28,811 bases of DNA from IMG/VR virus record IMGVR_UViG_3300037467_000973, positions 1-28,811 of that record. The stretch is one strand, 5' to 3'. Source of the DNA: a virus (Duplodnaviria > Caudoviricetes). A program made the translations under genes and the position numbers. Every line of letters begins with the position of its first letter. Position 1 is the first letter of the stretch. The notes beneath the pieces are model-generated. The model was not told the origin of the DNA. It saw only the letters and a program-made list of their open reading frames with translations, and made no database searches. Below are positions 592 through 28,311 of the stretch, piece after piece.

Positions 592-890
592 AGCGCCGCC
601 CCCCACAGGAACGCTGCCAGCACCGTCACGAGACAGCCGACCATGAACGAGCCCCATGCCACAATCAGCATTTCATCGCCGGTCCACAGCTTCGGCTCGC
701 GAACGGGGCGGATACCGGTGACTAGCGGCCGCAGCGCTTGTTGCATCCCAGCATCGCGGGTTGCCCTCGCAGCGCGCTCAAGATCGATCGGCGGGCAGGA
801 TGTAGGGGCGGGAAGGAAGGGGGCGCCCTCCCGCTCCTGATCGACCGAGCGCGGGCCGATGGGGAAGAGATCGTGGATTGAGGCGGTCAT
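588..890 (-). CDS. Hypothetical protein with C-terminal TM helix
   Basis: Coupled to both neighbours; hydrophobic C-terminus. Confidence 0.7.
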   Translation of the reverse strand: MTASIHDLFPIGPRSVDQEREGAPFLPAPTSCPPIDLERAARATRDAGMQQALRPLVTGIRPVREPKLWTGDEMLIVAWGSFMVGCLVTVLAAFLWGAAL

Positions 891-1594
891 GCGACCCTCC
901 CGTAATCAGCAGGGAGCGGCGGAATTGCTTCCGGCCCAGCAAACCCGAACAGTGGCAGGAAGAAGAACGACTGACCCTTCTCGCGCATGATGCGAGCGCC
1001 CTGGATTTCGCCGCAGGCATAAGCTGCTGCATATGTGGCGGCCCTCGCGGCGGCCCACGCGGCGGCCCACGCGGCATCCCCCGCGGCGGCCCACGCGGCG
1101 GCCCACGCGGCGGCCCACGCGGCGTCCCTCGCGGCGTCCCTCGCGGCGGCCCACGCGGCGTCCCTCGCGGCGTCCCTCGCGGCGTCCCTCGCGGCGGCCC
1201 ACTGTTCGTCGGTCATGCTGTCGAGGTAAAACCAGAATGCGAGAATGGTTTGTGCTTGATCACCAAGCACCTTTTCGGGGTTGGTCAGGACGATCGACGG
1301 AGCGCCATCAGCCTTGTCATTGATGGTGCGTAGCAGGATGGAATGTGCTACCGAGATATTGAGGCGCTTGGCCGTCTCCCGATCAGCGTCATCCTGATCG
1401 GTGTTGCGCAGCTTCTCCGGCGACCAACCGGCGAGCAGGTGAAGCACCTGACCCTGCGCACACATGCAACCGATGTTGGAGTTGTCGGCCTCGTAAGCCG
1501 ACCAGTCGATGAGCGACCCCTTGTATGGCTTGCCTTCGCCAGAGTCCCACCGCGCAATCAGGTCTGCAATATCTGTCGCCACCATAAGCTCCAT
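887..1594 (-). CDS. Phage protein with AAWA/AARD tetrapeptide repeats; first gene of leftward operon
   Basis: 235-aa ORF directly downstream of the pL-like promoter; about 13 tetrapeptide repeats. Confidence 0.85.
   Translation of the reverse strand: MELMVATDIADLIARWDSGEGKPYKGSLIDWSAYEADNSNIGCMCAQGQVLHLLAGWSPEKLRNTDQDDADRETAKRLNISVAHSILLRTINDKADGAPSIVLTNPEKVLGDQAQTILAFWFYLDSMTDEQWAAARDAARDAARDAAWAAARDAARDAAWAAAWAAAWAAAGDAAWAAAWAAARAATYAAAYACGEIQGARIMREKGQSFFFLPLFGFAGPEAIPPLPADYGRVA
1040..1201. repeat. 12-bp tandem repeat, about 13 units (GCGGCCCACGCG / GCGTCCCTCGCG variants)
   Basis: Directly visible; coding strand reads GCC GCG TGG GCC or GCC GCG AGG GAC. Confidence 0.95.
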
Positions 1595-1611: not shown

Positions 1612-1654
1612 CATAAACACCGAACTGGTGTCACTGTCAACACCAAAATGTATC
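1612..1654 (-). promoter_or_regulatory. pL-like promoter with operators
   Basis: Minus-strand TTGACA (1640-1635), 17 nt, TTTATG; palindrome ACACC-N5-GGTGT at 1617-1631; half-site ACACC at 1640-1644. Confidence 0.75.
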
Positions 1655-1697
1655 GGGTGAAAAATTAAATGTCTGACACTTTCCTACAACCAGTGCG

Positions 1698-1726
1698 TTG
1701 CTGTAAAAGAACAAAATGCGAACACT
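1698..1726 (+). promoter_or_regulatory. Candidate SOS promoter with alphaproteobacterial LexA box
   Basis: GAAC-AAAATGC-GAAC at 1709-1723 (GAAC-N7-GAAC) lying within TTGCTG-17-AACACT. Confidence 0.75.
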
Positions 1727-1838
1727 TGGCCGCGTCGTTACGCTCAACGACATTCAGCTTGCAGCAAACCTAGTTACGGTTAACGTGCTCAGTTGGTCGC
1801 CTGGGGAGGGGCCGTGTAGCGTTGGGGAGGGTAGTAAG

Positions 1839-2132
1839 GTGCCGCAAGAAATGGCCGCTTTGGAAAGCTACGCGGAGGACTGCGGAGTTTCCACCTTCCT
1901 GAGCTTGGCAGCCACGCGAATCGCTATCCGCGTCGGTGAGCTAGAATCTCAACTACGGGTCGCGCCACTTCAGGATCGCGTCGGGCTTGAGGATGCCTTG
2001 CGAACGTCTCGCTCAACGCTAGTAATACTGTGGCGAGATCTGCAACGATCGAGGGGGATGGATCACCGCCTCCGAGCGCTATCCGCGCCAGAGTTAGTGC
2101 AACCTCATTTGCGACTGGTTCACTCAGAGTAA
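1839..2132 (+). CDS. Putative LexA-controlled protein (candidate antirepressor), antisense-overlapping the repressor
   Basis: SD GGGGAGGG 1824-1831 then GTG 1839; 97 aa, helical-looking, ends PHLRLVHSE. Confidence 0.5.
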   Translation: MPQEMAALESYAEDCGVSTFLSLAATRIAIRVGELESQLRVAPLQDRVGLEDALRTSRSTLVILWRDLQRSRGMDHRLRALSAPELVQPHLRLVHSE

Positions 2133-2352
2133 ACTGCTCGCCTTGGCTGGCAATGAGCTCAGCCGGATCGACGCTGAGCGCTTTGGCCACCCGCTCGATC
2201 CAATCGACGGTGAGCCGGCGGTCGCCCTTTTCCAGCTTCTCGATCTGTTGACCGGACGTAGGCGGAGTCAGACGCGCCCCAAGTTGCGGGCGTGACCAAC
2301 CACGTTCTTCGCGCAGACGGCGAAGGTTCCCAGAGATTCGGGATGCGAGCAC
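1924..2352 (-). CDS. CI-like XRE HTH repressor, no S24 peptidase domain
   Basis: LRRLREERGWSRPQLG...QQIEKLEKGDRRLTVDWIERVAKALSVDPAELI; divergent from cro; GTG 2352 preferred over ORF-track start 2424, which lies in the operator region. Confidence 0.88.
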   Translation of the reverse strand: MLASRISGNLRRLREERGWSRPQLGARLTPPTSGQQIEKLEKGDRRLTVDWIERVAKALSVDPAELIASQGEQFTLSEPVANEVALTLARIALGGGDPSPSIVADLATVLLALSETFARHPQARRDPEVARPVVEILAHRRG

Positions 2353-2372: not shown

Positions 2373-2440
2373 CAACCGGCGCGGCTATACTGCATAATGG
2401 TGTTGACATTTGCCTCAATCGCAACCAGAGTGGTGTTGCG
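2373..2440 (+). promoter_or_regulatory. pR-like promoter/operator region
   Basis: TTGACA 2403-2408, 17 nt, CAGAGT; CAACC-N5-GGTGT 2422-2436; half-site GGTGT 2399-2403; shares TGGTGTTGACA with pL. Confidence 0.75.
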
Positions 2441-2635
2441 ATGAAGCTAAGCGACTATCTCACAGCCAAGAGCATAACGCGATTTGACTTCGCGCAAATG
2501 ATCGACCGCAGCCCCGAAGCTGTCCGTCGATACATGAAGGGTGAGCGTAAACCAGAACCAGAGACGATGCTGAGGATCGCCGAGATCACAGAGGGTGAAG
2601 TCACTGCCAATGACTTCTTCGGGATCGCGGCGTGA
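2441..2635 (+). CDS. cro: Cro-like HTH protein
   Basis: 64-aa HTH, MKLSDYL...GERKPEPETMLRIAEITEGEVTANDFF, divergent from repressor. Confidence 0.9.
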   Translation: MKLSDYLTAKSITRFDFAQMIDRSPEAVRRYMKGERKPEPETMLRIAEITEGEVTANDFFGIAA

Positions 2636-5071: not shown

Positions 5072-5730
5072 GCCGGTGGTTCCGTCTTTATGACGAGCTG
5101 CTGGATGATCCCAAGGTCCAGCGGCTGCCCGCCGGAGACTTCAGGGCGTGGATCAATCTGCTTTGCTTGGCGTCGAAGAACAATGGCCGGCTGCCATCGA
5201 TCACGGACATTTCCTTTGCGCTCCGTGAAACGGAGAACGCCGTTTCAACGCTCCTCGAACGGTTGTCGAACGGTGGGCTTATCGAACGCCGGAACGGTGG
5301 TGCAAGCGGTAGCCACTACGCCCCATACAAATGGGACGAAAGGCAATATAAATCAGACACTTCAACCGACCGAGTGAAACGTTTCAGGCAACGTTCCAAA
5401 ACCGTTACTGAAACGGCCCCAGATACAGAAACAGAAACAGAGAAAGAAGAAAGAAAGGGTGGCGACAAGTCGCCCACCAGCTACGCCTTTTTTGGACAGA
5501 CCATCCGGCTCACTCCGCAAGGGTTGCAGCGCTGGCAGAAAACCTATCACGGCATCAATGACATCGACGCCGAGCTGAACACGATCGACGCATGGTGGCA
5601 GTCGCAGCCCGAGGAAGAGCGCAAGAACTGGTTCCACCGAACCGCCGGGATGCTCAATCGCAAGCACCAGGAAACCTTGGCAAACAGAAAGAGGGACGAT
5701 GGGTATGACCCCAACGTCATTACCGTATGA
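5068..5730 (+). CDS. Phage replication initiator / replisome organiser
   Basis: MSRWFRLYDELLDDPKV N-terminus, RVKRFRQR, low-complexity ETETE linker; directly upstream of primase-helicase. Confidence 0.8.
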   Translation: MSRWFRLYDELLDDPKVQRLPAGDFRAWINLLCLASKNNGRLPSITDISFALRETENAVSTLLERLSNGGLIERRNGGASGSHYAPYKWDERQYKSDTSTDRVKRFRQRSKTVTETAPDTETETEKEERKGGDKSPTSYAFFGQTIRLTPQGLQRWQKTYHGINDIDAELNTIDAWWQSQPEEERKNWFHRTAGMLNRKHQETLANRKRDDGYDPNVITV

Positions 5731-8541: not shown

Positions 8542-8861
8542 GTTTTTCTTGCTTTTCTGCCACTTTTTAGTAGAACAAAGCATGACCATGACCCTTGAGC
8601 CAGATGTGGTTGATCGCTTCTGGGCAAAAGTCGATAAGCGCGGGCCAGAAGATTGCTGGGAATGGCAAGCCTGCACCGATCAGTTCGGATACGGACAGTT
8701 CCGTATCAGCCGCCCACGGCGCGCCATGGTGCGCTCGCACCGCATGACCTGGCATGTGGCGAACAACGCCGAAATACCTGACGGCTGCGCAAGAAAAGGC
8801 TGGAACAATCAGCGCCAGTCAAGAGTTCCGCATCCGTTCACGATGCGAACTAAAAAAGTTC

Positions 8862-15737: not shown

Positions 15738-16787
15738 ATGAGTCTGACGACCGTTACGACCAACCTGGTCGAACAGCAGTGGGATAACGACTTCTTCGCT
15801 GCTTACGTCCGCGCCAATCGCTTCAAGCGCTACATGGGCACGGCCACCAACTCGATCATCCAGCTCAAGGAGCAACTTGGCTCCAAGCCGGGCGATCGTA
15901 TCCACATTCCGCTGATCTCCGAGCTGACCGGTGCCGGCCAGACCGGCGATGGCCTGCTGGAAGGCAATGAAGAGGCGCTGGGCCAGTATGAGGATGCGGT
16001 CACCGTGTCCACGCTGCGTCACGCTGTCGCTGTCACCGACAACCAGCAGCAGTTCACGGGCATCGACCTTCGCATCGCGGCGAAGGAACAGCTCCAGAAC
16101 TGGGCAATGAAGAAGCTGCGCACGAGCATCATCAACGCGCTCGGCTCGACCGATGGCACGACGGCGTATGCGTCGGCCTCGGAAGCCAACAAGGACGCGT
16201 TCCTGGTGGCGAATGCCGATCGCGTTGTGTTCGGCGACGGCACCACCGCGGCGGCTTACACCGACCACTCGGCGGACCTCGCCCTCGTCACGTCAGCAAT
16301 GACGATGTCGAAGGAGATCGTCTCGCTGATGAAGGCGAAGGCGGAGAACGCTTCCCCGATCATCCGTCCGGTGACGGTTGGCGAGGACAGCGAAAACTAC
16401 GTCCTTTTCGTCGGTTCGGGCGCGTTCCGTGACCTCAAGGCGGATCTGGCGCAGACGCTCCAGAACGCCCAGGAGCGCGGCGACGGCAACCCGCTCTTCA
16501 ATGACGGCGACCTCATGTATGACGGCGTCGTTATCCGCAAGATCCAGGAAATCCCGGCAACGGGCACGGTCGGCGCTTCGTCGGCCCGCCTTGAGCCGAT
16601 TTACCTGTGCGGCGCCCAGGCTCTCGCGGTTGCGTGGGCTCAGCGCACGAAGAGCACCACCGACACGCGCGACTACGGCTTCGTAAAGGGCGTCGGCATC
16701 CACGAGATGCGCGGCGTCAAGAAGATGTTCTTCAACTCGAAGCAGCACGGCGTCGTCACCGGCTACGTCGCGGCTCTCGCCGTCTAA
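15738..16787 (+). CDS. Major capsid protein (DUF4043 / N4-gp56-like)
   Basis: KPGDRIHIPL...LEGNEEAL...LRHAV...NPLF...LCGAQAL. Confidence 0.92.
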   Translation: MSLTTVTTNLVEQQWDNDFFAAYVRANRFKRYMGTATNSIIQLKEQLGSKPGDRIHIPLISELTGAGQTGDGLLEGNEEALGQYEDAVTVSTLRHAVAVTDNQQQFTGIDLRIAAKEQLQNWAMKKLRTSIINALGSTDGTTAYASASEANKDAFLVANADRVVFGDGTTAAAYTDHSADLALVTSAMTMSKEIVSLMKAKAENASPIIRPVTVGEDSENYVLFVGSGAFRDLKADLAQTLQNAQERGDGNPLFNDGDLMYDGVVIRKIQEIPATGTVGASSARLEPIYLCGAQALAVAWAQRTKSTTDTRDYGFVKGVGIHEMRGVKKMFFNSKQHGVVTGYVAALAV

Positions 16788-26806: not shown

Positions 26807-27468
26807 TAATCCAGGCGGTCAAGTGCTTCTCAGGCAGTGGTAGTGCGGCGCCTGACGCCAACACCCTCTGGCTATTCCGCTACAATGTTTCACCGCCAAC
26901 CGATGAAATCACTAGCTTTGCCCTGACGTTGGCCGGCAACGCTACGGTGGACACGACCAACCACTGGATGACGTGCGACGGGGCGGGCGACTGGGCATCA
27001 ACCACCAACACGACCGGATTCAATATTCCCTCTGGCGACTTCACGCTGGAAATGCACATGCAAGTTCCGTCGGGCCAAGTCGGCGGATCGGTCTCGCGAC
27101 GGCCTGGGATCAACTCCGGTTCTTGGGCATGGTTTCACAATGGCAACGGAACGATAGATTGCTATTTCGACAATATCTCCGGATCTCCCCTGATCAATTT
27201 CGGAGCAGGTGCCGCGGACAATACGATGAAGCACTATGCTCTCGTGCGTTCGGGCAACACTTGGACGACATACATCAATGGAACTCAGAAGGGGACAGTG
27301 ACAAACTCCGGAACGATCGGCACTGCGCTCTCCACGTTCGGCATCGGGACCGATTTCTTCAATGCCGGAGCCCGCGATATTTCAGGCAACTTCGGGCGGT
27401 TGAAATGCTCCAATATCGCCCGCTGGACCTCTGGGGGCTTCACCCCGCCCGCGATCACCGACGTTTAA
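26803..27468 (+). CDS. LamG/concanavalin A-like receptor-binding protein
   Basis: GDFTLEM...HYALVRSGNTWTTYING...SNIARWTSGGFTPP. Confidence 0.85.
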   Translation: MIIQAVKCFSGSGSAAPDANTLWLFRYNVSPPTDEITSFALTLAGNATVDTTNHWMTCDGAGDWASTTNTTGFNIPSGDFTLEMHMQVPSGQVGGSVSRRPGINSGSWAWFHNGNGTIDCYFDNISGSPLINFGAGAADNTMKHYALVRSGNTWTTYINGTQKGTVTNSGTIGTALSTFGIGTDFFNAGARDISGNFGRLKCSNIARWTSGGFTPPAITDV

Positions 27469-28215
27469 CCGCCACGGCGCGACGATCCATTCCTTGAGGC
27501 CAGTCGGCTGCGGCATCCCCCCGACCCCGACCTCAGGCCACTCGTCTGATTGGGGCATGTAGAGCGTTCCGAAAAGCCAGTCCCATAGCGGGCTGAACGC
27601 TCCGAAGTTCTTGTTGAAGTGCTCCGGGTTCAGCGAATGATGGATGCGGTGATAGCGATTATCGACCCAAACGTAGCGCAGCGGGCCGAAGTGCGGTCGC
27701 GATGACGAGTGGATGTAGAATTGCTGATAGCGGAACAGCAGGACCAAGAGCCCTAGCGTGGGGGCAATCTTCACGTCGAAGAACATCAGCGGAATTGCAA
27801 CGGTGAGGCTCATGAAGGCCTCGGTCCAATGGTGGTAGCTGTTCGCTGCCGACAGGTCGCGGATCGAGTGGTGGACTGCGTGAAACCGCCAAAAGAAGCG
27901 ATGCTCGATCCGGTGGGCAATATAGAATTGAAGGTCGAGCCAAAGGGCCAGGACGACCGCACCGACCACTGGCGAGAAGACGCCCAAGTGGATCGGGATT
28001 GGCTTTATGCTCATGGCCTTCGAGATGTCACCCATAATCACCGCGACGCCGGCTCCTAGCGGCGCTGCGGCCAGCAGGAAGATGAAGCCGCCGGCCCTTC
28101 GCGGAAAAGGAATGCGTTCCTTTGGGAACGCCAGCTCGAACGGCAGGAAAATAGCCACGCCCGCGCACTGGTAGGCGAGCACGACCAGCAGGTTGGTAAG
28201 AAAATCCTCGACCAC
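27382..28215 (-). CDS. Fatty acid hydroxylase / sterol desaturase family membrane enzyme (moron)
   Basis: His boxes HRIEH, HAVHH, YIH, HRIHH; KNFG...WDWLFGT; start GTG 28215 (SD GGGAGG) or ATG 28227. Confidence 0.92.
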   Translation of the reverse strand: MVEDFLTNLLVVLAYQCAGVAIFLPFELAFPKERIPFPRRAGGFIFLLAAAPLGAGVAVIMGDISKAMSIKPIPIHLGVFSPVVGAVVLALWLDLQFYIAHRIEHRFFWRFHAVHHSIRDLSAANSYHHWTEAFMSLTVAIPLMFFDVKIAPTLGLLVLLFRYQQFYIHSSSRPHFGPLRYVWVDNRYHRIHHSLNPEHFNKNFGAFSPLWDWLFGTLYMPQSDEWPEVGVGGMPQPTGLKEWIVAPWRLNVGDRGRGEAPRGPAGDIGAFQPPEVA

Positions 28216-28311
28216 ACACCCTCCCATCCGAGCGCGATCATCTTAACCCGAATTAAACACCCAAGCCAAGCGGCTTCCCAGTCGGAGTGTATCAAAAATG
28301 GACCAGCCGAA

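Follow-up and report, generated by a model that had tools for sequence, protein, structure and literature searches.

Lambda-type S24 repressors undergo RecA-stimulated self-cleavage. In the Gifsy prophages and in phages 186 and N15, repressors that stay uncleaved are instead inactivated by antirepressors under LexA control (PMC3121763). Tum of 186 and AntC of N15 are such LexA-controlled antirepressors and Tum, in the available text of that paper, binds the repressor and blocks its binding to the operator. The TF-smORF modules of Vibrio and Aeromonas phages (PMC10432266) likewise encode small, homologue-less proteins that inactivate their own repressor without proteolysis and with strict pair specificity; these are SOS-independent and switched on by a divergent transcription factor, and the available text does not mention overlap. 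Long antisense overlapping genes with both frames under purifying selection are described for instance from Pseudomonas aeruginosa (PMC8850804).

Our subject is a complete virus record of 28.8 kb (28,811 nt; this whole stretch is called the window below), in which a small gene behind a predicted LexA box is encoded antisense over the tail of a repressor. We think it probable that this gene is an SOS-induced antirepressor, which would bind the repressor tail and release the lytic genes in place of S24 autocleavage. The module would work like the LexA-controlled antirepressor systems, a class to which it would belong. The logic is known from Gifsy, 186 and N15, and what appears to be new is an antirepressor-type gene lying antisense over the repressor tail.

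The likeness to GfoA, GftA and GfhA of Gifsy (PMC3121763) lies in an uncleaved repressor, a small protein under direct LexA control (predicted here at sequence level) and, as the available text has it, reversible induction. The Gifsy, 186 and N15 antirepressor genes are placed there outside the immunity region, whereas ours lies inside, flanked by OL and the repressor, whose tail it overlaps on the opposite strand, and has no family-level sequence match to the Gifsy genes. Tum, described as a protein of 146 aa with a DinI-like half, is encoded in a separate SOS operon and not in an overlap (PMC3121763), and the protein here has no DinI match; a point of likeness to 186 is that a copy of our module uncoupled from the overlap (genome G294) sits in a P2-like prophage. 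Lambda-type S24 repressors share the XRE HTH group and the OL-repressor-OR-cro layout with our locus, but here a doubly coding helical tail of 70 aa replaces S24 and the SOS signal would pass via LexA and transcription. Compared with the P. aeruginosa overlaps, as far as these are set out in the available text (PMC8850804), both frames are under purifying selection here as well, but here one product is the predicted inhibitor of the other within a single switch, and many phages carry the pair. A literature search over titles and the starts of abstracts, mostly of freely available papers, returned no antirepressor encoded opposite its repressor. An SOS response has been demonstrated in Sphingopyxis, and the available part of that paper does not mention the module (PMC6472365).

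The immunity region of the window

Pfam and PHROG matches identify P22-like portal, terminase, capsid and ejection genes in the window. Its left end is organized as a lambdoid immunity region with leftward early genes, a minus-strand XRE repressor and cro at 2441, and the divergent repressor and cro together with operator-like sites form a layout that would suit a temperate phage. No integrase was found in the window, which ends 1.9 kb left of the repressor. We infer a sphingomonad host because, among named genomes, it is mostly Sphingomonas and Croceibacterium that contain the closest HTH relatives; the capsid had no relative among the genomes searched. The features used below are as follows.

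1618 to 1630, no strand assigned: left operator-like palindrome CACC-N5-GGTG in the PL region, a putative repressor site
1635 to 1640, minus strand: TTGACA, by sequence the likely -35 element of the leftward early promoter PL
1681 to 1709, plus strand: likely SOS promoter by conservation, TTCCTA (1681-1686), 17 nt, TAAAAG (1704-1709), predicted +1 at the A of ATG 1716
1709 to 1723, plus strand: conserved LexA box of the alphaproteobacterial type, GAAC-N7-GAAC, lying over the predicted start site, with LexA binding predicted from sequence
1716 to 2132, plus strand: antisense gene in its long form (138 aa, probably leaderless), with a poorly predicted N-terminal 41 aa and a helical hairpin (from the conserved in-frame start, homologue lengths and the model)
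1759 to 1786, plus strand: promoter-like motif TTGCAG-16-TAACGT inside the long form, with an invariant third-position T; its function is a guess
1824 to 1830, plus strand: Shine-Dalgarno (SD) sequence of the internal start, its pairing conserved
1839 to 2132, plus strand: short form, 97 aa, the helical hairpin alone (conserved GTG start and SD)
1924 to 2132, both strands: doubly coding stretch of 209 nt, hairpin on plus and repressor tail on minus, first codon positions coinciding and second and third swapped
1924 to 2352, minus strand: repressor, about 142 aa if it begins at GTG 2352 (uncertain; ATG 2409 is an alternative), an XRE HTH with a three-helix tail (Pfam and model)
2403 to 2435, plus strand: probable PR/OR region by lambdoid layout, TTGACA (2403-2408) and operator-like AACC-N5-GGTG (2423-2435)
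2441 to 2635, plus strand: cro-like gene (HTH_3 match), first of the rightward early operon and on the strand of the SOS promoter

CACC-N5-GGTG stands to the left of the cassette in all ten loci with sequence there, a similar palindrome precedes cro in 9 of 12, and the alignment of loci keeps a TGTCAA/CGTCAA column at the PL -35. No terminator-like site was found between 1500 and 2700 of the window. The first leftward early gene (887-1594, minus strand) encodes 235 aa with a tract of AAWAAARD-type repeats and matches two PHROGs of unknown function. At the other end of the record, after the tail genes and on the opposite strand, a fatty-acid hydroxylase family gene (27382-28227, minus strand) could be a moron or host flank.

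The initial annotation described the repressor as having an HTH and lacking S24, and this agrees with its HTH_3/HTH_31 matches in Pfam and with the absence of an S24 match, both in the repressor itself and among the precomputed domains of its homologues, 46 of which are near full-length. Its HTH is up to 64% identical to those of S24-type repressors of the same XRE group. The structural model (pLDDT 90.5) consists of the HTH and a helical three-helix tail; its fold matches span only residues 1-75, the HTH, and no fold match is listed for the tail in searches that the HTH dominated. Among annotated phages, repressor matches were HTH-only and the antisense protein had no match. The helical tail is probably the oligomerisation domain of the repressor.

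Both frames of the overlap are selected

The close comparison set, subfamily I, comprises the window and 11 distinct full-length relatives (12 close loci), ten of whose repressors are 54-69% identical and one, L088, more distant. L001 (99% identical to the window), L020 (cut by a contig end) and duplicate records were left out before counting. The proposed 209-nt overlap of the plus-strand frame with the minus-strand repressor is correct, and the expectation that homologues would keep both frames open and retain the box was borne out at every one of the 12. The overlap measures 194-218 nt in 11 of these and, in L088, about 250 nt. A search of 401 Sphingomonadaceae genomes returned no member of the window's subfamily, and neither did a tail pattern run against genome contigs.

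No stop interrupts the antisense frame over the repressor tail in any of the 12 loci, where synonymous recoding of each tail leads one to expect 17.3-21.0. The repressor sequence leaves the frame open by chance with a probability of 3-33% at any single locus, the HTH halves contain 1-4 stops, as expected, and of the 68-codon stretches in window genes just 4.8% have this phase open. Some dipeptides make an antisense stop unavoidable or nearly so. The tails of 46 repressor proteins contain one of them, compared with 22.1 in shuffles, and the HTH half is depleted too (24 against 41.8). Identity at four-fold sites is 0.60 in the overlap and 0.40 in the HTH half (82 columns, p=0.0003), so the antisense gene lowers synonymous variation of the repressor over the overlap. 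Outside the overlap, codons 46-69 of the antisense frame have identities of 0.62, 0.54 and 0.37 at positions 1, 2 and 3. Judged by these substitution patterns, the antisense gene is under selection as a protein, and both frames of the overlap are conserved under purifying selection.

Long-tailed relatives of the same HTH group served as controls. Of these 32, 31 have S24, one is open in this phase and one has a perfect convergent box, which is found in 7 of the 12 close loci (Fisher p=1.5e-4; since the loci are kin, this and the preceding p-value overstate independence). Box and overlap go with the absence of S24 in this comparison, and no repressor with the module has S24. The SOS switch proposed initially therefore holds up in these two respects, a gene selected as a protein and an association with missing S24, while the promoter and gene start it assumed have to be replaced, as described below. 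Two S24-type repressors (L026 and L060) have a perfect box less than 150 nt from their stop, probably belonging to a neighbouring gene. Another locus, L075, is labelled a betaproteobacterium and has a repressor resembling the sphingomonad ones; it is likely a mislabelled bin and was used only as a control.

The LexA box and the candidate promoter

The perfect GAAC-N7-GAAC reported at 1709-1723 is present, and a box is found in all 12 close loci, 187-224 nt beyond the repressor stop. It is perfect in seven, and its second half is CAAC in two and GATT, which amounts to two mismatches, in three. The window contains four such perfect motifs where 1.09 are expected, and 4 of 100 shuffles reach four, so the box alone is barely above chance and derives its significance from its conservation. 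The other three are at 5257-5271, 8825-8839 and 16086-16100, at least two of them inside genes. The same motif stands in perfect form upstream of recA and of lexA in five of five sphingomonad genomes each, and the CAAC second half also occurs at lexA; GTTC-N7-GTTC is named as the LexA motif for Alphaproteobacteria in the available text of PMC8565304.

The letters of the promoter suggested earlier, TTGCTG-17-AACACT, are in place, but its TTG is kept in only 2 of 12 loci and its "-10" is the second half of the box. The element that is conserved is TT-N4, 17 nt and TA-N3-G, the last base of the -10 being also the first of the box. A -35 starting with TT occurs at the exact spacing in 8 of the 11 loci with sequence there and the -10 pattern TA-N3-G in 6 of 12, while L019 and L039 fit with a shift of 1 nt. 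A strict sigma-70 scan called neither TTGCTG-17-AACACT nor TTCCTA-17-TAAAAG.

Upstream of the box, at a distance of about 35-90 nt, many loci of both subfamilies carry the palindrome TAGGA-N4-TCCT(A) or just the half TTCCTA (L127-L147, L171 and L172, with a half site in the window at 1681-1686). This is possibly the site of a second host regulator.

Starts and structure of the antisense protein

The gene as first drawn, an SD followed by a 97-aa frame, is accurate in its SD at 1824, its GTG at 1839 and its stop at 2132 and yet incomplete, for the frame is open from ATG 1716 (138 aa) and the additional N-terminal part is conserved. An in-frame start lies within or just behind the box in all 12 loci. 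Four loci have it at box offset 7. In four others, whose downstream sequence is shorter by one base, it is at offset 9, and the start thus shifts along with the frame. The SD of L015 and L038 lies inside the box, with ATG following behind; L018 has its own SD, and in L088 the ATG is further on. The database homologues of the antisense protein, 12 of 12, have 121-155 aa and carry the N-terminal part. The position equivalent to 1839 has an in-frame start preceded by SD pairing of -7 to -13 kcal/mol in all 12 loci, the strongest SD of the gene in 11. Going by this conservation, the gene likely starts inside the box at ATG 1716, as a leaderless message for 138 aa, and GTG 1839 is a conserved second start; because both starts are conserved, two forms of 138 and 97 aa are likely. 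A short duplication around the SD in the window (1801-1833) adds five codons and keeps the frame.

The N-terminal extension is also constrained at the DNA level, with fixed third positions. The third-position T of two Val/Ile codons is invariant, in 12 of 12 loci at column 12 and in 11 of 12 at column 22, and GTT makes up 71 of the 295 Val codons of the window. The motif TTGCAG-16-TAACGT is a possible second promoter, for the short form. A wider pattern in the extension (1759-1800) reads TTMA-N7-GAMA ... GTTAA ... TGCTCG, its last element being read in two frames among the loci. When the internal motif was compared by eye with the CtrA, EcfG and sigma-54 consensus sequences, two loci (L012 and L013, with GGAAC-N16-CGTT) fit EcfG and the rest did not.

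That both products of the overlap are helical, as was claimed from the sequence, is also what the models predict. The antisense protein is predicted to form a long helical hairpin (helices 42-82 and 85-111, plus 113-123) with a core pLDDT above 90, while residues 1-40, at about 50, are unreliable. The best Foldseek hit had an E-value of 0.36, among generic hairpins. The protein of the window had no Pfam or PHROG match at E 0.01, and among 30 and 21 members scanned there were only scattered weak matches. No known antirepressor family was matched, and the Atlas gave no usable match. A single 97-aa query recovered no homologue, whereas an alignment-based search did; its matches to repeat proteins, such as P0069 and P0074, were judged spurious.

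A four-cysteine subfamily and an uncoupled pair

One of the controls, L052, turned out to combine a short repressor with a perfect box and a same-phase antisense gene, and it led to a copy in Croceibacterium xixiisoli. Strain S36 of that species has two copies, the contig 5 one resembling a remnant. Profiles of this subfamily II matched first 20 and then 27 of 401 Sphingomonadaceae genomes; G004 and G395 have two different copies each. Beyond that set, no convincing match appeared among 380 other genomes drawn from the class. The class-wide search matched 2 of 381 genomes, the centre genome and one weak match, which has a stop and lacks the cysteines and was rejected. We also rejected L148 as a member, which has no box, no repressor and a long unrelated frame.

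The subfamily II protein is characterized by P-x-C-x3-C-x2-C-x3-C followed by a predicted hairpin. The four invariant cysteines are encoded by a mixture of TGC and TGT, and the coding pattern extends outside the overlap. At 27 of 30 loci an opposite frame in the same phase runs past the antisense stop, giving overlaps of 140-260 nt and one of 395. The box is perfect in 24 of the 30 and is not perfect in 4 of the 27 overlapped loci, and the whole arrangement is repeated in five of eight loci that were kept out of the profile. The partners are short regulators; of 26 scanned, 22 have an HTH-type match at E 0.05, many of them weak, and none has S24. These HTH domains differ widely. In an HTH tree of poor resolution, which does not fix how often the module was swapped, that of L052 falls together with subfamily I and the S24 repressors. 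Among nine contexts, for which 117 of 228 picked ORFs were scanned, five have terminase and portal (four of them with integrase), one terminase only, one is remnant-like and in two no structural gene was seen.

Homology of subfamilies I and II is weakly indicated. The antisense proteins align in hhalign at a probability of 29% and E 6e-4. Their score is 26.7, and the highest among 60 column shuffles, in which helical periodicity is lost as well, is 13.0. The tails align at E 0.03-0.25. Common descent would be supported by agreement in phase, by an end point that in both lies where the tail starts, and by the TTCCTA element they share. Three divergent members of subfamily I with several cysteines before the hairpin (L088, P0070 and P0071) may form a bridge to the four-cysteine subfamily.

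The overlap is absent from three subfamily II loci (G294:C10, L176 and L177). In G294:C10, a P2-like prophage, the boxed gene follows a tail gene and faces, at 0.6 kb, a repressor with a subfamily II tail (E 3e-7), with a 199-codon frame between them. Three stops break the antisense frame over the 3' half of this repressor, and neither profile matches the reverse strand of the other gene. GC3 is 0.74 and 0.87 in this pair, compared with 0.53 and 0.55 in overlapped pairs. Each gene has lost the frame of the other, so both proteins are kept without the overlap, which favours two proteins over an antisense RNA. L176 and L177 are shortened copies without overlap and their genomes have no tail match, so that they either tell against strict pairing or mark decay. 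At L177 (L202:9072-9785) the shortened four-cysteine gene, in a P2-like prophage, is head-on to a gene with matches to anti-repressor families of the Ant type.

Proposed mechanism and alternatives

In a lysogen, host LexA would occupy the box. DNA damage would remove LexA and make the promoter active, from which the leaderless 138-aa form would be produced, and the 97-aa form from the internal start. The helical hairpin would then bind the helical tail and the repressor would leave its CACC-N5-GGTG operators. Convergent transcription and read-through towards cro could help, in a secondary way. Since a single DNA stretch encodes both tail and antirepressor, the two would be transferred together, as a module, to different HTH domains, with S24 replaced. 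Several points speak against an antirepressor. The strongest argument for it, the uncoupled pair, is drawn from subfamily II, which, being only weakly linked by homology to subfamily I, might be no more than analogous to the group of the window. Boxes have a two-mismatch second half in 3 of the 12 close loci, two of the nine contexts showed no phage structural gene, and a family match is absent. If there is an internal promoter, its position downstream of the box would put it beyond the reach of LexA, an awkward situation for a lysogen.

The protein might have some other target, such as RecA/LexA signalling in the manner of DinI, cell division or RNA polymerase, the overlap being mere packing and the repressor being inactivated by a host protease or a distant antirepressor. 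No family match indicates a target, the SOS operons of Gifsy and 186 also carry DinI-like functions in the available text of PMC3121763, one shortened copy adjoins the Ant-type match and some copies lie in contexts without structural genes; yet the gene accompanies one tail in P22-like, HK97-like and P2-like prophages alike and with HTH domains that are unrelated, is missing next to 31 of the 32 long-tailed controls from its HTH group, and has the tail nearby even when uncoupled, which makes this rather unlikely. We also consider it unlikely, to a slightly greater degree, that the SOS promoter acts mainly through RNA or polymerase traffic (by collision, by pairing to the repressor mRNA or by read-through across OR into cro), with a minor protein whose translation only sustains transcription. 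All overlapped loci are head-on, the promoter and cro point the same way, and the window and 8 of 12 loci have no terminator-like site from the antisense stop to cro. In 4 of the 12, however, such a site does intervene, and residue-level conservation outside the overlap, the invariant cysteines, the conserved SD and an uncoupled copy that retains box and protein speak against this reading. Existing repressor would moreover have to dilute away, which should be slow. Phage antisense RNA has a precedent in OOP of lambda, but OOP plays little or no part in CII removal after SOS induction according to the available text of PMC2327240.

Binding could also stabilise or redirect the repressor, as a co-repressor or induction brake, or the long and short forms could be opposed. 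With two in-frame starts conserved, and possibly a second promoter, there may be two products or inputs, and gp7 of GIL01 is a small phage protein that strengthens a repressor (PMC4551915, available text), but such repressors would then be left with no visible induction route and de-repression upon loss of LexA would fit an inducer more simply; we regard this as quite improbable. That the plus frame is only a shadow of the amino-acid pattern of the repressor and the box a chance occurrence has the single-locus probabilities and the four boxes of the window in its favour. It is largely refuted, and hardly credible, in view of the joint lack of stops, the synonymous constraint, the rarity of same-phase openness in window genes, the coding signal outside the overlap, the conserved SD and box and the free-standing homologue.

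Beyond the antirepressor itself, we put forward more tentatively, and with somewhat less than even confidence, that the arrangement could be a portable SOS module of about 400 bases. It would consist of a LexA-boxed promoter and a two-strand antirepressor/receptor stretch, would fit behind any HTH in place of S24, and would be inseparable by recombination and changed in both partners by a single-step mutation. Each sphingomonad prophage would have a private induction key. The origin would be by overprinting, and the uncoupled P2-like copy would represent the state before or after.

Implications

If this is true, it would explain the induction of many alphaproteobacterial prophages whose repressors have no S24, by way of a gene whose position opposite the repressor tends to make annotation omit it. 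A stretch of about 200 bases would pass on lock and key together. It would be a natural case of interacting proteins on complementary strands, available in dozens of diverged pairs and one uncoupled pair, which would allow overlap-constrained co-evolution, gene birth by overprinting and the cross-induction of co-resident prophages to be tested. The pairs could also serve as orthogonal repressor/antirepressor switches.

Five subfamily II loci (L142, L144, L147, L171 and L172, in G302, G165, G395:C11, G352 and G242) form a clade of closely similar modules. The one context of this clade that was checked, G242, has housekeeping genes around the module and no phage structural gene was seen there; this clade may be a domesticated SOS switch.
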